A stretch of DNA of 64,000 nt from an uncultured candidatus Porisulfidus sp. Its GTDB lineage: Bacteria; Pseudomonadota; Gammaproteobacteria; Poriferisulfidales; Oxydemutatoraceae. The notes under the pieces are model-generated. The model worked only from the letters and a program-made list of their open reading frames with translations. It was not told where the DNA came from and did no database searches. The position numbers were made by a program, and so were the translations under genes. Positions 15,217-25,516 of this stretch are shown piece after piece. The stretch is from NCBI GenBank assembly GCA_965215125.1, contig OZ244052.1, forward strand, positions 512,001-576,000, in the 5' to 3' direction. Positions within the stretch are counted from its first letter, which is position 1, and each line of letters begins with the position of its first letter.

Positions 15217-15792
15217 CTAGCGGCTTGCTTTCGCAATCGCTTCAAAATCTACGCCTTTATACATAAAGCTCTGTTTTTCAAACAGCTTGTCTCCATATTG
15301 GGTGACCCAATCTTTGTGGAAGCTCAAGGTATATTCCGGAGGCGGCATCACATTGAAAATCACATCGTATTTGTCGGTAATCTCGCCGGGCAATGCCATA
15401 TTACGCGCGTAGTGCAGATTATCGACCAAGTTGATATGCGGCACCAAATCCACATTTGCTATTGCGCCGGTCTTCGGATTGATAACTTGTGCGGTAATGA
15501 CTAAATACCCGACAAAGCCGCCCGCCGGGGTGCCCTCGGGAATAGAATCTTCGTCGTCTGCCCAATTAACTCGTGCTTCTATATGCACATGCGTTTTACT
15601 CTCCTCCAGATGGTAATTCGCCGGTGTGATCGTATCCTTAACGGCACCCTCAAAGATGAATTGTATACCCGGCTCTATCATCTCTTCGCCGATGACCAAT
15701 TCAAGTGCATGCGATTGGGTCATAAATAATACCGAAAAACACAATATAACGCCTCGGTAGAATTTATTCATCGTTCCAGTTAAAGTTTTCAT
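15217..15792 (-). CDS. Periplasmic iron-transport protein, P19/Tp34/FetP-like
   Basis: Signal peptide; HIEA, GF..YL.I.A, L.P......HYA.N..LPG motifs. Confidence 0.7.
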   Translation of the reverse strand: MKTLTGTMNKFYRGVILCFSVLFMTQSHALELVIGEEMIEPGIQFIFEGAVKDTITPANYHLEESKTHVHIEARVNWADDEDSIPEGTPAGGFVGYLVITAQVINPKTGAIANVDLVPHINLVDNLHYARNMALPGEITDKYDVIFNVMPPPEYTLSFHKDWVTQYGDKLFEKQSFMYKGVDFEAIAKASR

Positions 15793-15834
15793 TTATTTAT
15801 CTCCTCTATGTTGGTTTAATAATCAATGCTAATT

Positions 15835-16560
15835 TTACGCCCTTTTAAGCCAAAGAAAAACGCCTGTGGCAGAAAGGAATAGTAAAAGCAACGCTACGAA
15901 ATCGGCAATAATAATACCTGCGGTGCCGAATAGACGACCGCTGTGGAAATCAAGCAATGTGCGTTCCCAGCTTATCAAATGATTATTGGCGTGCGTAATA
16001 ATGGTTTCTCTCAAATACATCGGCACTTCCGTGCTGTTGACGGGTGCCGACCATGTTATTTGTGTGCCACTATAAACCTGCCAATCTTGCAGATATTTAT
16101 CTACCTGCCAGTTGTTGCGTAGACCGCCGATGATAATAGCACCCTCTCGGTTGTATCCTATCCTACGCATCACGGAGGGCAATCCGTTTAGAACGGAGAG
16201 CCTGTCTACTATCTCGCCGCGTTGCGATAGCAACCATAGTTTGTTATCTCCCACAATCCAAACATAGGTTTCACCCTCCACAACACCTTGTAAATTATTT
16301 AGTTCGATGTTGGAGACGGGAAGTCCGTCCATATAGAGGAAAGAGCCCGCTTGCGAAACCCAGCGCTTATCGGTCTTATAATCTACCGTATCTTGGTCTT
16401 GGATCTTCGCACCGTATAAATAACCGGACAGCGAAGACGGAATATAACGTTGATCTAAATCGAACCAATCGGTATGTTGTATTGCCAATCCCGTCATCAC
16501 GAAAATTAATAAAAATATAAAGCTTCCGATGCCTATGCTACGATGTAATTTGCGGTACAT
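15835..16560 (-). CDS. PepSY-associated TM helix protein
   Basis: RKLHR..G......TG...H at the N-terminus; WER..LD.HSGR.FG..G....D......L..TG..LW at the C-terminus. Confidence 0.85.
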   Translation of the reverse strand: MYRKLHRSIGIGSFIFLLIFVMTGLAIQHTDWFDLDQRYIPSSLSGYLYGAKIQDQDTVDYKTDKRWVSQAGSFLYMDGLPVSNIELNNLQGVVEGETYVWIVGDNKLWLLSQRGEIVDRLSVLNGLPSVMRRIGYNREGAIIIGGLRNNWQVDKYLQDWQVYSGTQITWSAPVNSTEVPMYLRETIITHANNHLISWERTLLDFHSGRLFGTAGIIIADFVALLLLFLSATGVFLWLKRA

Positions 16561-16583
16561 AATCGGCTATCATACTACACGGG

Positions 16584-17114
16584 TTATGGTACGACCGATT
16601 TGTGTAGCATCAGAGCAAGCCTTGCCAGTTTGGTGACCGCACGCACCGACAAAGTAGCGCCCGAGATATTATCTATACTGCGATCAAGTTTCAAACTGCC
16701 GGTTAACTTTGCATCGGTAAATTGATCGGCAAACGAATCATAACGCACTTCCCAGCCGCGACTCTCACGAAAGATTAACACTTTGACCTCTTTTATACGA
16801 TCCGCATCGATAGAAAAACCACTGGTGATTGGTCGCTCTTTACCGATCTCTTCCAATATCCAAACACTGCGATTATCTTTAAGCCAATAGCGGATTCTGA
16901 ATTTACTATATCTATGACCGAGTATGCCTTTGATCGAATCCTTAATCGTCTGGTCGGGATAAAGCATAGAAGGCTCGGGAGGATCATCGTCGAAGTGGCG
17001 AGACACAAACGCATCCGGTGCCTCGTAAATACTCTCTATTGCCAGAAGCGGCGCGCGAGGTTGAACGAGTAATAACGCCGCACACAAATAGAAAGCCCAC
17101 TTCGATCGGTTCAC
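16584..17114 (-). CDS. FMN-binding (flavinylated) periplasmic protein
   Basis: EIGK..PIT, FRESRGWEV, IDNISGATLS flavinylation motif. Confidence 0.85.
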   Translation of the reverse strand: MNRSKWAFYLCAALLLVQPRAPLLAIESIYEAPDAFVSRHFDDDPPEPSMLYPDQTIKDSIKGILGHRYSKFRIRYWLKDNRSVWILEEIGKERPITSGFSIDADRIKEVKVLIFRESRGWEVRYDSFADQFTDAKLTGSLKLDRSIDNISGATLSVRAVTKLARLALMLHKSVVP

Positions 17115-17417
17115 CTCCCAAGCCTCCGTAAAATCAAATTCGCGTCTTAGCTCTTAAAATACCGAGGGTCTCGGAAACTTCGCGCCGACCATACATCGTG
17201 TTACAATGCCTGCGGCGGCGCGCAAGATACTCGGTTTGTTACCGAGACCCATACAAGTAAACCGTCTCATTAGTGCCGGTATCAAAGGTTTTGAGGCAAG
17301 TCGCTCCAAATGACTGGATACAAAAGACATAAAAGTATCTACCGTTTTCCGTGTCAAAGTAGCACACTTAACGTGGAGGATTGAAATACAACTACCGTTG
17401 AACACTGAAAAACGCAT

Positions 17418-17531
17418 TGAAGTCGACTCGCCTGCAAAACCCGAAGAAAAGTTATAGTTAAACGCCATTTCCCTGAAGTCGACTCGCCTGCAAAACCCGA
17501 AGAAAAGTTATAGTTAAACGCCATTTCCCTG
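17418..17531. repeat. Perfect 56-bp tandem duplication
   Basis: TGAAGTCGACTCGCC...CCATTTCCC at 17418 and 17474. Confidence 0.95.
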
Positions 17532-17533
17532 TA

Positions 17534-18973
17534 TCAAAACTCATAACCGACGCCTAAGTTGAAGCCGTCGAAGTCACTGTCGCGATCGCCTGCATTATCG
17601 TGTTCACGATCTACGAGGTCCATTTTTAGAACCGCACTCTCGCCTAAGTAATAATTGAAGCCCACACTATATTGGTCAAATTCATCTTGCGAGCGTCCAC
17701 CCTCAACATCTTCGTAGCGCGCAAAGATACCAAAATTGGGAGTCAACTTAAAAGAAGGTTCTACATACCAACCCTGTTGCTGGTCGTAATCGGCAACTTT
17801 TATCGGGTTAGGAATCCTAGTCCCGCGATTATTAGGATCTTCTATTTGAGAGTCCACATCTACATCCCAGGCGGCGTATAAAGCCCTGAGACCGAATGGT
17901 CCCCGACTGTAGACGATGTGTGCCTCATAAAGTATGGCATCGTCTACAGTGTCACGACCGATAGCACCAGTACTCCCTTGAGTGATATCCGATTGATACT
18001 GCACACTTGCTGCCAGCTCGAGACCCGGCATCCCGGTGTATTTGACACGACCGGTGAACGCAAGATCGTTGGCAGTGGCATTGGCAGTTTTTTGCCTACC
18101 CGAGCGAAAACGTAATTGAGGACTAGGTACAATCTCAGTATTTGGCACAATTGTAATAGTATCACCATCTATATCATTATCACCATTATCATCGACGATA
18201 TTAATTATAGAGGTATCTCTGCCTTCATCTTTAATAACCCTTGTGTTATAAGCTCTGGCAGGAACTTCTAATCCTTCGTGCAACGCAAGATCAATGGTAA
18301 ATCCGTTATCCATGCGATGTGTGAAGCCGATACCGCCTGCCCACCAGGTTGTCGGAACGATAACATTTTCAACGGTATTGCGTTCAACACCGTAAAAAGT
18401 CGGGGGTTCGTGAGTTTCGTTTAGAATACCGACGGGCAATAGAAAAACACCTGCGCGAGCGGTATTGCGTTCATCAAAATCATATTCTATGAAAGCCTGC
18501 TCTAGTTCAACTTCTCCCGGCTGACCGTCTCCGGCGAGCGCATGCTCTAATTCAACTTCGGAAAAAAACCTCAACCTATCGGTGAACTCATGACCGAAAA
18601 ATAGTACGAAGCGATGAAAGTCTAATTGCCTGAAATTATTACCGCTGTCCCGACTCCAGTTATTATAGTGCAGTTCACCATAACCTCCCATTGAGGTTTT
18701 GTCCCAGAAAGAAGATTGACCACCACTGTACGACTCAACTGCTTCGGCAGTCACTTCAACCGCTTGCTTATTCTCTTCCACATCTTGATCGATTGCCTCC
18801 AATTTCTGTTGCATCGATTCTAATTGTGCTTGCAACGCTCTCATCTGTTGTTTAAGTACGTCAATCTCATCTGCTTGAGCAACAGCTTGGCAAGGTGCAA
18901 TCATTAACGATAAAAACAAACCGGTCATAAAGCAATAAATTTTTGTTCGTTTCTTATTAAATAAATGTTTCAT
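17534..18973 (-). CDS. Outer-membrane porin with N-terminal coiled coil (iron-uptake-cluster type)
   Basis: Signal peptide, coiled coil, GGYGELHYN, DFHRFVLF, LNETHEP.TFYGVERN, C-terminal YEF. Confidence 0.85.
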   Translation of the reverse strand: MKHLFNKKRTKIYCFMTGLFLSLMIAPCQAVAQADEIDVLKQQMRALQAQLESMQQKLEAIDQDVEENKQAVEVTAEAVESYSGGQSSFWDKTSMGGYGELHYNNWSRDSGNNFRQLDFHRFVLFFGHEFTDRLRFFSEVELEHALAGDGQPGEVELEQAFIEYDFDERNTARAGVFLLPVGILNETHEPPTFYGVERNTVENVIVPTTWWAGGIGFTHRMDNGFTIDLALHEGLEVPARAYNTRVIKDEGRDTSIINIVDDNGDNDIDGDTITIVPNTEIVPSPQLRFRSGRQKTANATANDLAFTGRVKYTGMPGLELAASVQYQSDITQGSTGAIGRDTVDDAILYEAHIVYSRGPFGLRALYAAWDVDVDSQIEDPNNRGTRIPNPIKVADYDQQQGWYVEPSFKLTPNFGIFARYEDVEGGRSQDEFDQYSVGFNYYLGESAVLKMDLVDREHDNAGDRDSDFDGFNLGVGYEF

Positions 18974-19683: not shown

Positions 19684-21261
19684 TTAGCTGTCAAAAATTA
19701 TTCTGAAACCTAGATACGGTGCCTTGAACGAAGCAGGAAGAGGATTTTCAAAATCAATGCGGGCGGTTGCTTCTCCCGGCAGTATGTAATTACCGCCTTT
19801 GGCAATAATCGCAAAACCTTGTCCGGCGGTGCTTAGGCTTTGTGTCCATTCCGAAACATTGCCACCCATATTGATGACACCGGCAGCATTGATATCGCCG
19901 TTCTGCTCCAGAGCGGAGAGCGGTTTTATCAGTTGTCTCTCGGCAGTGGCCACATAGTCGGGATTAAAGGTGTTGCCCCAAGGATAAGAGTAGCTACCCA
20001 TTGAAGAGGCGGCAATCCATTCGAAATTATTCGGCAATCTTCCGCCTGCCCAATTTGCAAATGCATAAGCCGACCACCAATCTATATCGGTTGCCGGCAA
20101 GTCGTCGTTTTGATAATCGTCCAACCACGGCGGACTATAATCGTGTTCTTCGGGCTCCTTCTCGTTTGCATAAAGCCCGTAGCGCACCAAGGGATCGTTG
20201 ACGAAACGTCTGTATTGCGCTCGGGTCACCTCGTGGCGCAATATCCGAAAATCGTTATGGCGATGTTTTTTATCAACCAGTTTTCCAATGATATCGAGTT
20301 GTTTGCGGGATAACCCCGACCCCAATAGTCCCGGTATCTTAGCGTCGTCGGGGAGACCGATACGATACTGCCCTGCATCTACACGTACCGTTTGCGGATG
20401 TTTTTCGGTCCACGGTATTTTCTTCGGTTGCTCGTCGTAAACACATCTGAAACTCACATAAGGAGAACGATACTTCGCTTCCACGGTACGATAAAAATTG
20501 TTTAAGCTATAAATCTCGTAGGGTTTGTTATATGCGTTGCCACCGTGTATACTCGGCTTCGCTTCCGCGTCAATACCTTGCGCCCATTCGGATGCGACAT
20601 TACCCAGATTGTGTATACCCTGCGGTGTATCCATCTCCTTATGCAAACCGCAGCGTTGTGCGGCGTTGAGCCTAGGGTCCAAATACGGCCAACCCTCGGA
20701 GTTGAAGTCGTTCCCCCACGGATAAAGCCGACCTTCGGAACCGCTTGCAATCGCAATCCATTCCGTACGCGTCGGCAGTCGCCCACTGCTCGCTTGACAA
20801 TAAGCATACGCGTCGTAATAGCTAACTCCGTTTGCAGGCGCATCCAAACGGCCGCTAATTTTGTGGTCTCGGCTTATGCTCCTATAAGACCAATTTTCAG
20901 GTTGTTCGGGATGTGCTATATCGGTCGGGTTATAAAGTGCATACCATTTTTCAAAAGTATAGAAATCCTTTTGCCGTACTTCGCATTGATCCACCCATAA
21001 AGGAGGCAACTGCACATTGCGCTCGGATTCCTTGAATATCGGATCAAAAGAGCGGATGCGCCCGAAGGCATATAGATACTCGCTCAAAATTGCATCCAGT
21101 TGCGCACCGCGCGCTTGAGTGGTTTGATCATCTTGGGATATATCAACCTGCACCGTATCAAATTGATAAAAAGCGGTACGCAGTTTATATAAACTAAATA
21201 CCGATAGTGCAATGATTATTGCTGCTACGAGTAGACTCCCCAGTACAGAGGCCGGCTTCAT
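19684..21261 (-). CDS. Membrane-anchored protein with two FGE-sulfatase (SUMF1/EgtB/PvdO, C-type lectin fold) domains
   Basis: Twice: DA.AYC/FA....RLP...EW..A......YPWGN, GNV.EW, GFR; N-terminal TM. Confidence 0.85.
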   Translation of the reverse strand: MKPASVLGSLLVAAIIIALSVFSLYKLRTAFYQFDTVQVDISQDDQTTQARGAQLDAILSEYLYAFGRIRSFDPIFKESERNVQLPPLWVDQCEVRQKDFYTFEKWYALYNPTDIAHPEQPENWSYRSISRDHKISGRLDAPANGVSYYDAYAYCQASSGRLPTRTEWIAIASGSEGRLYPWGNDFNSEGWPYLDPRLNAAQRCGLHKEMDTPQGIHNLGNVASEWAQGIDAEAKPSIHGGNAYNKPYEIYSLNNFYRTVEAKYRSPYVSFRCVYDEQPKKIPWTEKHPQTVRVDAGQYRIGLPDDAKIPGLLGSGLSRKQLDIIGKLVDKKHRHNDFRILRHEVTRAQYRRFVNDPLVRYGLYANEKEPEEHDYSPPWLDDYQNDDLPATDIDWWSAYAFANWAGGRLPNNFEWIAASSMGSYSYPWGNTFNPDYVATAERQLIKPLSALEQNGDINAAGVINMGGNVSEWTQSLSTAGQGFAIIAKGGNYILPGEATARIDFENPLPASFKAPYLGFRIIFDS

Positions 21262-21422
21262 AGCCTTTTTTTGCCTCCTTTACCTAGGAGCTTACCGCCT
21301 TTCAGACCGCCGCCTCTCATTAGACCGCCGCCTCTCATCAGACCACCGCCCATCAATCCACCACCACCGGATCTGCCTAGGAACCTAGATAGCAAACGAA
21401 ATAACATAAACATTCCTCTCAT
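21258..21422 (-). CDS. 54-aa cationic glycine-rich peptide
   Basis: GGAGG RBS; MRGMFMLFRLLSRFLGRSGGGGLMGGGLMRGGGLMRGGGLKGGKLLGKGGKKRL*; TGA overlaps the next ATG (ATGA). Confidence 0.7.
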   Translation of the reverse strand: MRGMFMLFRLLSRFLGRSGGGGLMGGGLMRGGGLMRGGGLKGGKLLGKGGKKRL

Positions 21423-21532
21423 AATTTTTCCTCCGTGCTTTTATCGTAAATCCATTATAAACAGATTGGCAGTAAAATGGTGACTACGCAAACAACCACC
21501 CTGTCAGGCGCGCCTGCCAATCCACTGCCCAT

Positions 21533-23269
21533 CTATGCGGTAGTTCCGATGAATCTGCGCAACACGCCGAACAGTAGCAACAACGCAGCAAAACCGTAGA
21601 ATAGGAGTGCTTCGTTTTCCTTTCTATAGGGAACGCTGGGATAATGCGTCATCACCTGCGTTTGGGCAACGGTTACACTGTTTTGATCAGCCGCAAACCG
21701 CAAACTACCGTCTCGATTGATCGCCGCATAAACGAAAGCCAGCAGATAATCGTCCCTTTGCGGTGATACGATAGTTGCAATACGCCACTGATATTGATCG
21801 GGATCGGCTTGTTTGCGAGGCAATAAAATAATACTGTCCTTATCTAGGTTTATTTTTAACCCTTTATAAATCGCCGGATAAAGTCCCACATGCATTCTAA
21901 CGACGGCATCCCCGGGTAAGTCGGGAAAAGGCATTTGTTGCGAATTATTCAACAGCAAAGCATTCTCCAGCAGTTGGTTCGGATGCACCGCCAATGCCGT
22001 CACATCGTTATCCTCGGTTTGCTGCTCCACATACAAAGGATTTTTATCGTCACCGGATGTCGGGAACATCACGCTTTTAAGATACTCGTAGAAGTTGATC
22101 TCTTCGTCGCTCAATGTCGGCATCATTGCCGCAGGTAGCAATATGTCGTCTGCAAACTTGAAATTTTGCAACATCAAATAATTTCCTTCGCCGACAGAAC
22201 GTTGTGCTTTTTCCATAAATTGAAAAAGTGCCGCTAAAATGTTTGCGTATTCTAGTTCCTCGCCGTTCTCGTCGCCCTCCGACATATTGAGATATACATA
22301 CTCCTGTTCTTTCTCCGAAGACGACTTTGCCGAAGACGGCGTTGCAGTTCTAAACCGCATGACACTCGGGAAATTACTACTTTGGTTCCCTCGCCCTAAG
22401 CTCTCCGCCATCATCTTTGATAAAGCATCAAACATCTCATCGGCAGGTTCGTCCGATCCGCCCCCACTATACTCTTCGCTTTGAGAGTCGGCATTCTCGG
22501 CATCGTAAGCGAGATCGTCAAAGGGATAATTTTCATCGCTGGTCACCGCACCAAGCGAAATATCGGCAGGCATATCTTCCCATATATTCTCATTATTGCC
22601 TCCCTCGCCTTCGTTTTCTCTAAACTGCTCGGAGTTACCCGGTTGTTCCGAGTCATCTTCGCTTGTTTCATCGGATTCGGCAATTACTTCTCCCGCACCG
22701 GGTTCGCTTTTGTTGTCATCCTCTACAGGATTGCCGTCATAACCGATGAAGTGCCAATGGCGAGGCATCGGCCCGTAATCTCCGATGATAGACATAGTCA
22801 AATAAAACGTACGGATATCGTAAATATCTATGCGTATATAACTTCTTTGTATAGGATTCATCTTTGCCAAAAATTTATCAAACGCATTATCGGGTTGCAA
22901 TAACTCATCGCGGCTGAATCTCTGCTTTGTGTAATAATCCTGTATATAATCGGAGTGCAGTTCGATAATCGGCATAATAGAAGGATGCGGATTGGCATCC
23001 ATAGGACTGTTGACATAATCGTGTAGCCTAGCCGGCTTAGAGGTCGGCAGACCGTTCATCACCACCGAGGTTGCTAAATCGCGGCTGAGCAATACCGATA
23101 TATCTTCTACTTCGCTGATACGCGCCTCTTCTTGTTCGTGCTCGATCATCATCGTAAGCACGATCAAAATGATAATCATCGCAACGCTGTTTGCCAGAAT
23201 GTCCGCTAACGCGATGCCGGCAAAGCCGGGAAGTAGGCTTCCTTTTCGTGATTGCGCCGCCGTTGCCAT
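21533..23269 (-). CDS. Hypothetical membrane protein with MotB/ExbD-like N-terminal TM (LAD), acidic linker and C-terminal TM
   Basis: ALADILANSVAMIIILIVLTM; long D/E-rich segment; operonic spacing. Confidence 0.6.
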   Translation of the reverse strand: MATAAQSRKGSLLPGFAGIALADILANSVAMIIILIVLTMMIEHEQEEARISEVEDISVLLSRDLATSVVMNGLPTSKPARLHDYVNSPMDANPHPSIMPIIELHSDYIQDYYTKQRFSRDELLQPDNAFDKFLAKMNPIQRSYIRIDIYDIRTFYLTMSIIGDYGPMPRHWHFIGYDGNPVEDDNKSEPGAGEVIAESDETSEDDSEQPGNSEQFRENEGEGGNNENIWEDMPADISLGAVTSDENYPFDDLAYDAENADSQSEEYSGGGSDEPADEMFDALSKMMAESLGRGNQSSNFPSVMRFRTATPSSAKSSSEKEQEYVYLNMSEGDENGEELEYANILAALFQFMEKAQRSVGEGNYLMLQNFKFADDILLPAAMMPTLSDEEINFYEYLKSVMFPTSGDDKNPLYVEQQTEDNDVTALAVHPNQLLENALLLNNSQQMPFPDLPGDAVVRMHVGLYPAIYKGLKINLDKDSIILLPRKQADPDQYQWRIATIVSPQRDDYLLAFVYAAINRDGSLRFAADQNSVTVAQTQVMTHYPSVPYRKENEALLFYGFAALLLLFGVLRRFIGTTA

Positions 23270-23273
23270 CGCT

Positions 23274-23798
23274 TTACTGCCTCTTGATAACGCGGTCTAT
23301 ATAAGGCGGGATATCGTCGAGCGAGACCGACTTCAATAATTCGCGATCGGCGATAATCCAACCTATAGTCAATTTGTCCCGTATCGTAGGCATTGTCAGA
23401 CGCATACATTCTCGGGCTATTGCCATCGTTCTAACACTGCCTTCCATGATAATAAAGATGAGTTGCTGTTTGGGCTTACCGTAAATCTTTCTGGCGTAGC
23501 TCGCAAAAGGACTATTGGGCGCGCAAATCTGGTCTTGTTTTAAGACATCGCCACTTTCCACAATGCGCAATTCATCGGGAAAAGTCAGTATGGAATAACC
23601 GGTGCCCTGCACACCCCAACTCACTTTGTAATCCCCTTCGGTGTTTATCCCCTCCAAACGTTCCTGTAACGAAAGCTGAGAAAAAGTGTTTATCAGTATA
23701 AACAAAACCAAAAGCAGAGCAAAAACACCGCCGAAAATCTCAACCATCGGCGCGTTGTTTTTCTCTTGATCCTTGAGGCTATCATGACGACGCATCAT
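23274..23798 (-). CDS. ExbD/TolR/MotB-like bitopic protein
   Basis: APMVEIFGGVFALLLVLFILI TM with an acidic residue, small periplasmic domain; directly after the MotA/ExbB-like gene. Confidence 0.55.
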   Translation of the reverse strand: MMRRHDSLKDQEKNNAPMVEIFGGVFALLLVLFILINTFSQLSLQERLEGINTEGDYKVSWGVQGTGYSILTFPDELRIVESGDVLKQDQICAPNSPFASYARKIYGKPKQQLIFIIMEGSVRTMAIARECMRLTMPTIRDKLTIGWIIADRELLKSVSLDDIPPYIDRVIKRQ

Positions 23799-23804
23799 TT
23801 CATC

Positions 23805-24845
23805 TTAAGGTCTAACAGCGAGTATCCGGTTTTCGTAGTTCGTTAGCAGATTGTTCTCCCATCGCTGTATGATGGTTTGTAACAAAGTCAACACGATGCT
23901 CAAAGACAAAGCAATCAATGTTGTATCAAAAGCAATTCCCAACGGGGCTATCGCATCGCCCAACTGATTGGAAAGATTGGCTAAGCCTTGCTGCTCGCCG
24001 ATAATCTTTTGTATACCGTCGGATGCAAGCGAGATACCGTAGACGGTACCTATAAAACCCAAAATAGGAATAGACCAATTGAAATAACGAGGCAAAATAT
24101 AGAAATCCGCCGACTTTTTCCAGATCAAATCAATATAGGTATCCTTCGTTACGGAGTTTCGATCGTCCAGCAAGCGATGGTAAGTGCGCATCAACAACGA
24201 GCGGTCGGGCTTGTTGATCAGCCGCTGCTCGTTCCATAGCGTATAGCTCTTGCTTAGCAACAGGATCAGACCCCAGCAGAACAGTAGAATAGTGAGCGGC
24301 GGTATAAACCCGCGAGCCAAAAACTTATTCGTCACTACTATCAGATCCGGATAACGAACCGCAGTGTTATAAATCATCAGCAGTATCGTCGTAGATAAAA
24401 TAATCGCAACCGCCAATGTCAGTACTAAGGGAGGACCCGAGAGTATCGACTCAAGTTTGCGCACCAAATCCTGCTGATATTCCGAGGAGGTGTTATGGTT
24501 GAGTAGTATATAAAATATATACAACGCAATGACCGAACTCAATAACGGCAGAGACTTCTCGGGCGTATAACCGTCGGATAGCAAAACCTGATTATTGAGC
24601 AACGGGATGAATACCTGATAAGTAACGATTAGGCTAATGGCAATCAAAGACAATAATATTAAAAAGCTCAACACCTTGAGCATAGTCTGTTTCTTTAACA
24701 TCAGTCCGGCAACCGACAATAAAGCAATCGCTAGACCTACTCCCAAACCGCCATTCGCAGAATAGCCTATGTTAATGCCCAAACTGATAAACGCGGCGGG
24801 GAATAGTACAAACGATGTGATAATAATAATAATTTGGTTCAACAT
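23805..24845 (-). CDS. MotA/TolQ/ExbB proton-channel family protein with extra N-terminal TMs
   Basis: IPILGFIGTVYGI and LGIAFDTTLIAL channel helices. Confidence 0.85.
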   Translation of the reverse strand: MLNQIIIIITSFVLFPAAFISLGINIGYSANGGLGVGLAIALLSVAGLMLKKQTMLKVLSFLILLSLIAISLIVTYQVFIPLLNNQVLLSDGYTPEKSLPLLSSVIALYIFYILLNHNTSSEYQQDLVRKLESILSGPPLVLTLAVAIILSTTILLMIYNTAVRYPDLIVVTNKFLARGFIPPLTILLFCWGLILLLSKSYTLWNEQRLINKPDRSLLMRTYHRLLDDRNSVTKDTYIDLIWKKSADFYILPRYFNWSIPILGFIGTVYGISLASDGIQKIIGEQQGLANLSNQLGDAIAPLGIAFDTTLIALSLSIVLTLLQTIIQRWENNLLTNYENRILAVRP

Positions 24846-24922
24846 AACAATACAACTATTTTATATAAAGTTTCAGGTGGGAAATTAAATTATAATACAT
24901 TCTATGGCTATCGGTGTGCGTT

Positions 24923-25516
24923 ATGATAAAAATTATTCCCTTAAAAAATTTAAGTAATCATTTTATTAAAGGATATGCTTTGTATCCGCCTTTCCCTACG
25001 GATACCCGAACGGCAATTTTCGCACTCGGGTGCTTTTGGGGCGCGGAGCGTTGCTTCTGGCAACAACCGGAAGTTTATCTAACCGCAGTGGGCTATGCCG
25101 GCGGAGCGACTGCCAACCCCGACTATCGAGCGGTTTGTAGCGGTAACACCGGGCATACCGAAAGCGTGCTGGTCGTGTATCACGACAATCAAAACACCGA
25201 TACGCATAGTGTCTACGAAAAACTGCTCAAGATTTTCTGGGAGACTCATGACCCGACCCAAGGCATGCGACAAGGCAACGACATCGGCAGCCAATACCGC
25301 TCCGCGATATTTTGCTTCGACGACTCCCAATACCAACTAACACTAAAAACACGCGAAACCTATCAAGCCCGTCTAAACCGATCGGGCTACGGACAGATTA
25401 CAACCGAAATCATTCGCACCGCAGATTTTTACTACGCAGAAGATTACCACCAGCAATATCTTGCCAAAAACCCCGGCGGCTATTGCGGCTTAGGCGGCAC
25501 CGGCGTTCGCTTGTAA
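24923..25516 (+). CDS. msrA: Peptide-methionine (S)-S-oxide reductase
   Basis: [33 protein letters not shown]. Confidence 0.96.

Follow-up and report, generated by a model that had tools for sequence, protein, structure and literature searches.

Micro-proteins encoded in operons, such as KdpF, CydX and AcrZ, possess a true transmembrane helix and have a demonstrated larger membrane partner. We found a small open reading frame (ORF) that can be compared with them in a 64,000-nucleotide stretch of contig OZ244052.1 (hereafter the window) from an uncultured candidatus Porisulfidus sp. The ORF encodes a cationic, Gly-rich peptide of 54 residues and overlaps, with its stop codon, the start codon of a gene for a membrane-anchored protein with two FGE-sulfatase folds (the FGE gene and FGE protein; Table 1). 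Like KdpF, CydX and AcrZ, the peptide is shorter than 80 residues, was missed by annotation, is encoded beside and coupled to a membrane-protein gene, and has an N-terminal membrane-seeking helix. Unlike them, it has an amphipathic helix bearing an Arg stripe, a disordered Gly/Met/Arg repeat makes up two thirds of its length, its partner is putative and its sequence is unrelated. The genetic arrangement of an accessory micro-protein is nevertheless present: a ribosome-binding site (RBS) and an ATGA overlap with the FGE gene are found in all five genomes of the genus, and the pair is intact after rearrangement in two of the five. We lean, with some reserve, towards the reading that this is a genuine micro-gene born within the genus, and that its peptide may be an accessory or regulatory subunit coupled to the FGE protein at the membrane surface.

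Several other known systems resemble the peptide in part. Glycine-rich microcins and cationic Gly/Leu-rich antimicrobial peptides are likewise small and Gly-rich, and the cationic ones have an amphipathic helix and no acidic residues. However, the peptide has no leader and no Cys/Ser for heterocycles, there are no export, maturation or immunity genes nearby, and, unlike microcin genes, the small ORF is coupled to a housekeeping-looking envelope operon. Its neighbours encode a MotA/ExbB-like protein, two membrane proteins of no recognized kind, the FGE-fold protein, MsrA and a porin, which is not the setting of a class II microcin or bacteriocin. The C-terminal Gly-Gly-Met tail of GroEL is also a flexible Gly repeat with regularly spaced Met, but it is an uncharged part of a 57-kDa chaperonin, whereas the peptide is free-standing and has Arg or Lys in every unit. 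RGG/RG boxes share the repeated R-G-G in a disordered Gly-rich stretch, but here orthologues can have Lys/KGG or GRG in place of the Arg, and the repeat is joined to a hydrophobic helix. To our knowledge, the RGG/RG-box motif has no precedent in a bacterial context. The type I toxins Hok, TisB and Ldr are likewise small and membrane-seeking, with a cationic tail and with an open frame overlapping on the antisense strand, but the small ORF is embedded in an operon and ATGA-coupled (5/5 genomes), it has no full-length hydrophobic transmembrane segment, and a consensus promoter scan gave no plus-strand site within 21200–21500. Neither does the ORF look like an attenuator leader: it ends within the next start codon, leaving no room for an attenuator, and the RNA fold of its region is unremarkable (z = −1.6) with no Rfam match.

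A coupled small ORF in one genus

The peptide, which reads MRGMF...KKRL, starts with MRGMFMLFRLLSRFLGRS, continues with a Gly/Leu/Met/Arg repeat and ends with KGGKLLGKGGKKRL. It is composed of 20 Gly, 11 Leu, 7 Arg, 6 Met, 5 Lys, 3 Phe and 2 Ser, with no Asp or Glu and a net charge of about +12, and has three RGG triplets in G000 (the five genomes of the genus are G000, which holds the window, to G004). The features described in the initial annotation, namely the ORF itself, a GGAGG, the stop/ATG overlap, an amphipathic helix, 18-bp repeats, a Lys-rich tail and the lack of acidic residues, are all present. The annotation had called this an unannotated small ORF coupled to the FGE-domain gene, which agrees with the expression signals and with the absence of the exact sequence from about 15 billion collected protein sequences. 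Four genomes of the genus have GGAGG as the RBS, and one has AGGAG. A second GGAGG lies within the codons of the Lys-rich tail, a region that reads AAAGGAGGC in four of the five genomes and GGTGGTAAGAAGG in the other; it may be the FGE gene's own RBS and may partly account for the conservation of the KGGKK tail. The copy number of the 18-bp repeat varies among all orthologues, with ORF lengths of 49–73 residues if the metagenome relatives described below are included.

Of five sequencing runs from two studies, none was listed as an RNA run. DNA contigs from four runs, compared over 21000–21700, are identical to the window across the small ORF, with no indels in the repeat; this is a confirmation of the assembly only. 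One 122-nt contig of depth 3 from run X4 (record 4, over 21256–21302) has seven differences, and its loose end runs into a different repeat unit, which reads approximately G-G-G-K-L-M on the minus strand. This contig points to an additional, less common relative with a different variant of the repeat. We also considered a programmed −1 frameshift at the A7 run (21266..21272) that would join the peptide and the FGE protein into one chain, as the −1 frame is open from this run into the FGE gene. The run is not conserved (A8, A6 and A6 in three other genomes, and AAGAAGG in G002), and the frameshift was rejected because the A run is absent from G002.

FGE orthologues are present in 20 of 41 related genomes, including 18 of the 18 other members of the family. 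We read the DNA upstream of the FGE loci and found the small ORF together with its RBS and ATGA overlap in all five genomes of the genus, where it encodes 54, 73, 60, 66 and 69 residues and where FGE protein identity drops to 77–78%. This recurrence of ORF, RBS and ATGA exceeds chance. No small ORF of this kind was found at the FGE loci read in other genera. A search with a profile of the orthologues, one of whose rows begins after the initial Met, gave matches in five of 19 family genomes (5/5 in the genus, 0/14 outside), with a single copy in each, the window's own genome included. The expectation that syntenic operons hold a conserved small ORF was thus borne out within the genus and failed outside it. 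In a composition scan (Gly ≥ 25%, basic residues ≥ 15%, at most one acidic residue), the small ORF was the sole match in the whole genome, and a looser scan (basic residues ≥ 12%, at most two acidic residues) gave a match in three of 57 other FGE-gene loci, all three in the genus.

The small ORF has few relatives in the databases. When 5.8 billion clusters were searched by word index, two of 880 candidates were matches, and searching 1.84 billion representatives with a profile yielded two at E ≤ 0.001; combined, they amount to three proteins from metagenome assemblies, with 56, 49 and 44 residues. The shortest departs from the family beyond residue 32, probably through truncation or a frameshift. 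As the window peptide is absent from the collected sequences and the four genome orthologues are not among the matches of either large search, the genome annotations appear to lack this gene. The peptide matched no family in Pfam (E ≤ 10), NCBIfam (E ≤ 0.01) or PADLOC (E ≤ 0.01), the ESM Atlas gave no usable match, and no paralogue was found. A pattern search of genome contigs with the orthologue alignment yielded 93 pattern matches, of which tblastn confirmed none; it was uninformative, probably because of low complexity. Judged by these searches, the peptide family is an orphan.

We then investigated whether the frame behaves as a coding sequence. In a codon alignment of the five genomes (10 pairs), the ratio of nonsynonymous to synonymous rates (dN/dS) is 0.06–0.38 in the sense frame and 0.16–0.80 in the antisense frame, the latter being higher in nine of the ten pairs, although this contrast is overstated by an alignment built on the sense protein and by the non-independence of the pairs. 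Differences are most frequent at third, then first, then second codon positions (29/15/5 over 50 codons between G000 and G002). For the same genome pairs, the proportion of synonymous differences (pS) is 0.13–0.74 in the small ORF and 0.17–0.68 in the FGE gene, and the nonsynonymous proportion (pN) is 0.015–0.22 versus 0.019–0.128, roughly up to threefold higher in the small ORF. Arg codons swap from AGA to CGC or CGA, and Leu codons swap between CTN and TTR, with the residues retained; these swaps fall on the second position of the antisense frame. Such switches of codon family at constant residues, together with the loss of AGAGG in G002 where Arg is kept, argue that selection targets the peptide and not the RNA. 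An RNA-level role of the Shine–Dalgarno-like AGAGG plus AUG in each repeat was rejected, since G002 has CGC-containing codons in its place and retains Arg. We consider it likely that the small ORF is a translated gene.

Besides the bias of the alignment, several observations weigh against this reading of the locus. No stop interrupts the antisense frame either in any of the five genomes; that frame shares the wobble positions, and an open frame by itself is weak evidence here, as indels of an 18-nt unit stay in frame automatically. In the G000/G003 pair, dN/dS is lower in the antisense frame (0.16 versus 0.21), with only nine differences there. The codon-adaptation values of 0.70 (sense) and 0.63 (antisense), compared with 0.75–0.78 for neighbouring genes, separate the two frames poorly. 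Conservation may in part lie at the nucleotide level, through the RBS of the FGE gene in the tail codons and through homogenisation of the repeat. With so few members, the family does not lend itself to covariation analysis. Finally, the operon works without the peptide in every other genus, and any role is dispensable or lineage-specific.

The N-terminal part of the peptide is amphipathic rather than hydrophobic throughout. Residues 1–18 of the G000 peptide have a hydrophobic moment of 0.65, which was matched by 1.9% of 5000 shuffles, and the other two N-terminal variants in the genus have a moment of 0.62 (matched by 0.2% and 3.5% of shuffles). AlphaFold2 with a seven-row alignment predicted a helix at residues 2–18 and no structure in the remainder, with a mean predicted local distance difference test (pLDDT) score of 60.1. 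Arg residues at 2, 9 and 16 (or 2, 9, 13 and 17) form a single polar stripe that is preserved through differing substitutions, and each of the seven full-length orthologues has no acidic residue. By reading of the orthologues, Arg at 9 and 13 (or 16) breaks the hydrophobic core in all of them and there is no AxA-type cleavage site; a twin Arg is found only in G002 (16–17), where it follows rather than precedes the hydrophobic stretch and does not make a Tat motif. Because of the broken core and the lack of a cleavage motif, we infer that the peptide remains cytoplasmic. Complex prediction for the FGE protein (11 rows, from 11 of 18 loci) and the peptide (7 rows) scored 0.00 in both runs, made without controls, against a mark of 0.32.

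The ancestral junction and the linkage of the pair

At the junctions read outside the genus, the gene for a 578-aa protein adjoins the FGE gene. Of 13 such junctions, 12 have a 4-nt overlap between its stop codon and the FGE start (8 ATGA and 4 GTGA), and the thirteenth has a 4-nt gap; this count omits L013, in which one long open frame runs through the junction, and the fragmented genomes G017 and G018. One of the 12 overlapping junctions belongs to a Pseudomonadales metagenome-assembled genome (MAG), which has the same four genes and an FGE protein of 34% identity. In this comparison, the small ORF appears as a genus-specific insertion into an old coupling junction that recreated the overlap at its own 3′ end.

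An origin of the ORF by tandem duplication of the junction was considered and is unsupported. Residues 4–19 of the G000 peptide (21366–21413) have their best ungapped match, among 1.04 million six-frame genome positions, in the last 16 residues of the 578-aa protein (21533–21580), with a score of 35 against 29 for the next best, for a 16-residue query picked after the resemblance had been noticed. The resemblance depends on residues that seem to be derived in G000 and G003. The N-termini of the G001 and G002 types are unlike the tails of their own 578-aa proteins, as 545 and 4036 background positions score equally. DNA local alignments of the spacer with the head of the FGE gene, and of the 5′ end of the ORF with the 578-aa tail, were equalled by shuffles (fractions 0.73 and 0.85). 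We rejected the duplication because the tail match is limited to some variants and uses a post hoc query, and because the DNA alignments are no better than shuffles.

The position of the pair differs among the genomes. The cluster is intact in G002 and G003. It is split in G001 and G004: the small ORF remains beside the FGE gene, but the motA-like, 174-aa and 578-aa genes, accompanied by msrA, are about 281 kb (G001) and 1.06 Mb (G004) away. The small ORF and the FGE gene appear, from this arrangement, as one unit that is separable from the motor-like genes. In G001, the upstream neighbour of the small ORF is a divergent operon of DUF-like, sensor-kinase and sigma-54-type response-regulator genes. 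About 65 nt 5′ of the small ORF are conserved among four genomes and contain a −10-like hexamer (Table 1). A consensus promoter scan called no site at this hexamer, where the −35 is poor; an internal promoter ahead of the small ORF is possible. The 578-aa stop and the small ORF are just 19 nt apart in G002, where the remaining upstream spacer is unalignable, yet the RBS and ATG are kept. The spacer of 110 nt in G000 holds a repetitive extragenic palindromic (REP)-like element, which recurs 57 more times in the genome, in full or in part (19 of these copies have at least 26 nt), and forms terminator-like hairpins at 21510..21497 and 21500..21479.

Possible roles of the peptide and competing explanations

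The events at this locus may be described as follows. In the ancestral state, the 578-aa and double-FGE genes would have overlapped by 4 nt, and the micro-gene would have been wedged at exactly that junction, with its own strong RBS and probably its own promoter. Ribosomes that end the peptide would be passed to the FGE start via the ATGA overlap and, judging from these signals, translation of the small ORF would replace the coupling formerly provided by the 578-aa gene. The N-terminal helix, with a narrow Arg stripe and a wide hydrophobic face, would suit the cytoplasmic leaflet of the inner membrane. The disordered Gly/Met/Arg repeat of variable length would trail the helix, and the polybasic tail would then bind anionic lipids. 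Because the peptide would be made in step with a membrane-anchored FGE protein, a partner role is suggested, and the peptide is most likely a small accessory or regulatory subunit of the FGE-domain protein or its proton-motive-force machine. A related view, to which we give less credence, is that the gene is seen shortly after its birth: a sequence inserted into the 4-nt overlap, with later expansion of an 18-nt unit, would have inherited ribosome delivery and then come under purifying selection as a cationic membrane-surface peptide of variable length, which would accompany the FGE-fold protein even once the FGE gene leaves the operon.

The main rival to a functional peptide is that the ORF is translated only to bring ribosomes to the FGE start after foreign sequence had split the junction, the peptide being functionless and quickly degraded. 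This would be in keeping with the ancestral 4-nt overlap (12/13 junctions) and its reproduction by the small ORF in 5/5 genomes, with a repeat number that drifts freely (49–73 residues), and with the lack of the peptide in other genera. Constraint at the level of residues counts against it. The pN/pS values of about 0.07–0.42 are far under 1 and indicate purifying selection, the switches between Arg and Leu codon families retain the residue, amphipathicity is kept by different residues, and no acidic residue has arisen from 20–28 Gly codons despite near-saturated silent sites. Moreover, the GGAGG in the tail codons could serve the FGE gene unaided. We regard such a mere relay of ribosomes as rather unlikely. 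Less probable again is that there is no gene at all and that both open frames are compositional by-products of a G-rich 18-bp repeat and spacer. A non-coding origin could accommodate the presence of two open frames out of six in each of the five genomes, the in-frame indels, which an 18-nt unit gives by default, the REP-like repeat in the adjacent spacer and the lack of an annotation for the ORF in the genomes. However, the substitutions are of a coding type (3 > 1 > 2), the RBS and ATG persist in G002 where the rest of the upstream spacer is unalignable, the frame spans exactly the interval from the RBS to the FGE ATG in all five genomes, three independent gene calls were made in metagenome assemblies, and neither the RNA fold nor Rfam points to a structured RNA.

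The remaining explanations concern the nature of the product. A cytoplasmic RGG-type peptide that binds nucleic acids or ribosomes, for example acting on its own mRNA, would account for the three RGG triplets, the charge of about +12 and the disordered Gly-rich region; the Arg sites are often Lys or Gly-Arg in orthologues (LMKGGG, LMGRGGG), the conserved amphipathic hydrophobic helix is foreign to RGG boxes and no family matched, and we consider this role improbable. The initial annotation had suggested an antimicrobial peptide or the cargo of a motor operon, which corresponds to an exported, membrane-disrupting peptide or to cargo of the MotA/ExbB-like machine. The cationic amphipathic helix and Gly-rich body do resemble cationic antimicrobial peptides in composition, but the hydrophobic core is broken by Arg (9 and 13 or 16) and forms no uninterrupted, Sec- or Tat-like signal, and the operon has no leader or cleavage motif and no transporter. 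Family scans of the neighbours gave no ABC exporter, peptidase, processing or immunity gene near the small ORF. The cargo idea is disfavoured because the small ORF/FGE pair can stand apart from the motor-like genes, being unlinked from them in two of five species, at 0.28 and 1.06 Mb. The ORF is also missing from the same operon in other genera (0/14 family genomes outside the genus). Neither suggestion held up, and we think an export or cargo role very improbable. Least probable of all, to the point of being negligible, is that the plus-strand Pro-rich ORF is the real gene. This ORF has an open frame in every one of the five genomes and reaches 108 residues in G001, but its dN/dS (0.16–0.80) is the higher one in 9/10 pairs, its second codon position is more variable than its first, and its orientation opposes the operon. 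Upstream of its TTG start is the pyrimidine-rich CTTCATAGCCTTTTTT with no purine-rich RBS. The initial annotation's description of this frame as an antisense shadow is most likely correct.

The neighbouring genes and the meaning of the locus

Table 1. Positions of the small ORF, its signals and the adjoining genes in the window
Feature	Position	Strand	Remarks
Small ORF, 54 codons	21258..21422	−	Helix, then Gly/Leu/Met/Arg repeats, then Lys-rich tail
GGAGG, RBS of the small ORF	21430..21434	−	7 nt from the ATG (21422..21420)
ATGA overlap	21258..21261	−	Small-ORF TGA (21260..21258) and FGE-gene ATG (21261..21259); three shared bases
Second GGAGG, within Lys-rich tail codons	21274..21278	−	12 nt 5′ of the FGE ATG
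18-bp tandem repeat encoding GGGLMR units	21302..21350	−	Tandem Repeats Finder: period 18, 2.7 copies, 90% matches
Pro-rich ORF, 70 aa	21271..21483	+	TTG start at 21271
TATAAT (−10-like)	21454..21459	−	TATAAT or TACAAT in 4/5 genomes, including two with a different upstream neighbourhood
REP-like palindromic element, about 28 nt, core CAGGCGCGCCTG	21492..21519	−	Spacer 3′ of the 578-aa gene
525-aa membrane-anchored protein, two FGE-sulfatase folds	19684..21261	−	PF03781, 2 stretches, E 1.5e-48; N-terminal anchor
578-aa protein	21533..23269	−	N- and C-terminal hydrophobic segments, very acidic middle; no family match
174-aa single-pass membrane protein	23274..23798	−	No family match
346-aa polytopic membrane protein	23805..24845	−	Weak MotA/ExbB/TolQ-like C-terminal part

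The MotA/ExbB-like, 174-aa, 578-aa and double-FGE genes form a module on the minus strand (19684–24845), whose counterpart in the Pseudomonadales MAG is L038 (1–4009). The closest solved sequence to the 525-aa FGE protein is SUMF2 (1y4j), an inactive paralogue. Catalytic FGE proteins, human and bacterial, carry two catalytic cysteines, paired, towards the end of the fold. In a by-eye alignment, the segments IHGGNAYNKPYEIYSLNNFYR and AKGGNYILPGEATARIDF ahead of the terminal FRC and FRI motifs of the two domains contain no Cys, and the double FGE fold is apparently non-catalytic. The FGE protein also has a weak match to the NCBIfam GldK model (E 5e-4). The 174-aa and 578-aa proteins have no Pfam match even at E ≤ 10. 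The 346-aa protein matches PF01618 with E 0.0038 and 17.4 bits, below the cut-off of 22.9, and a ZorA model with E 0.0057; the label of a motor operon is thus plausible but weakly founded. The four-gene module recalls type IX secretion, in which a proton-driven motor is paired with the FGE-fold lipoprotein GldK/PorK. Literature searches, covering listings and the starts of abstracts, gave nothing that joins FGE-sulfatase with MotA/ExbB, stator, TolQ, ExbD or proton-channel terms, and a term search of PMC12505986 gave no occurrence of sulfatase, FGE or GldK.

An MsrA-like gene with a GCFWGAE motif (24914–25516, plus strand) lies next to the motA-like gene, in divergent orientation, in each of the five genomes of the genus; the small ORF is far from it in two species. 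Downstream of the FGE gene (15217–18973, minus strand) are genes for porin-like (Porin_4/Porin_O_P), FMN_bind, PepSY_TM and Iron_transport (Fe2+) proteins, which together resemble a cluster for the uptake of ferrous iron.

Annotation systematically overlooks small proteins, and the origin of only a few can be traced. The practical weight of this case is limited by uncultured organisms and a peptide function that is inferred. The locus also draws attention to the four-gene envelope module, which is shared by a family of sulfur-oxidising symbionts and extends to a Pseudomonadales MAG. Its interest is mainly that of a likely recent gene birth at a coupling junction. Both the ancestral state, with overlapping genes, and the derived state, with an interposed ORF of 49–73 residues, are visible, which makes the locus useful for studies of how micro-genes are born and become fixed at coupling junctions. 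If true, this would be a clean natural case of translational coupling as a cradle for de novo micro-proteins.

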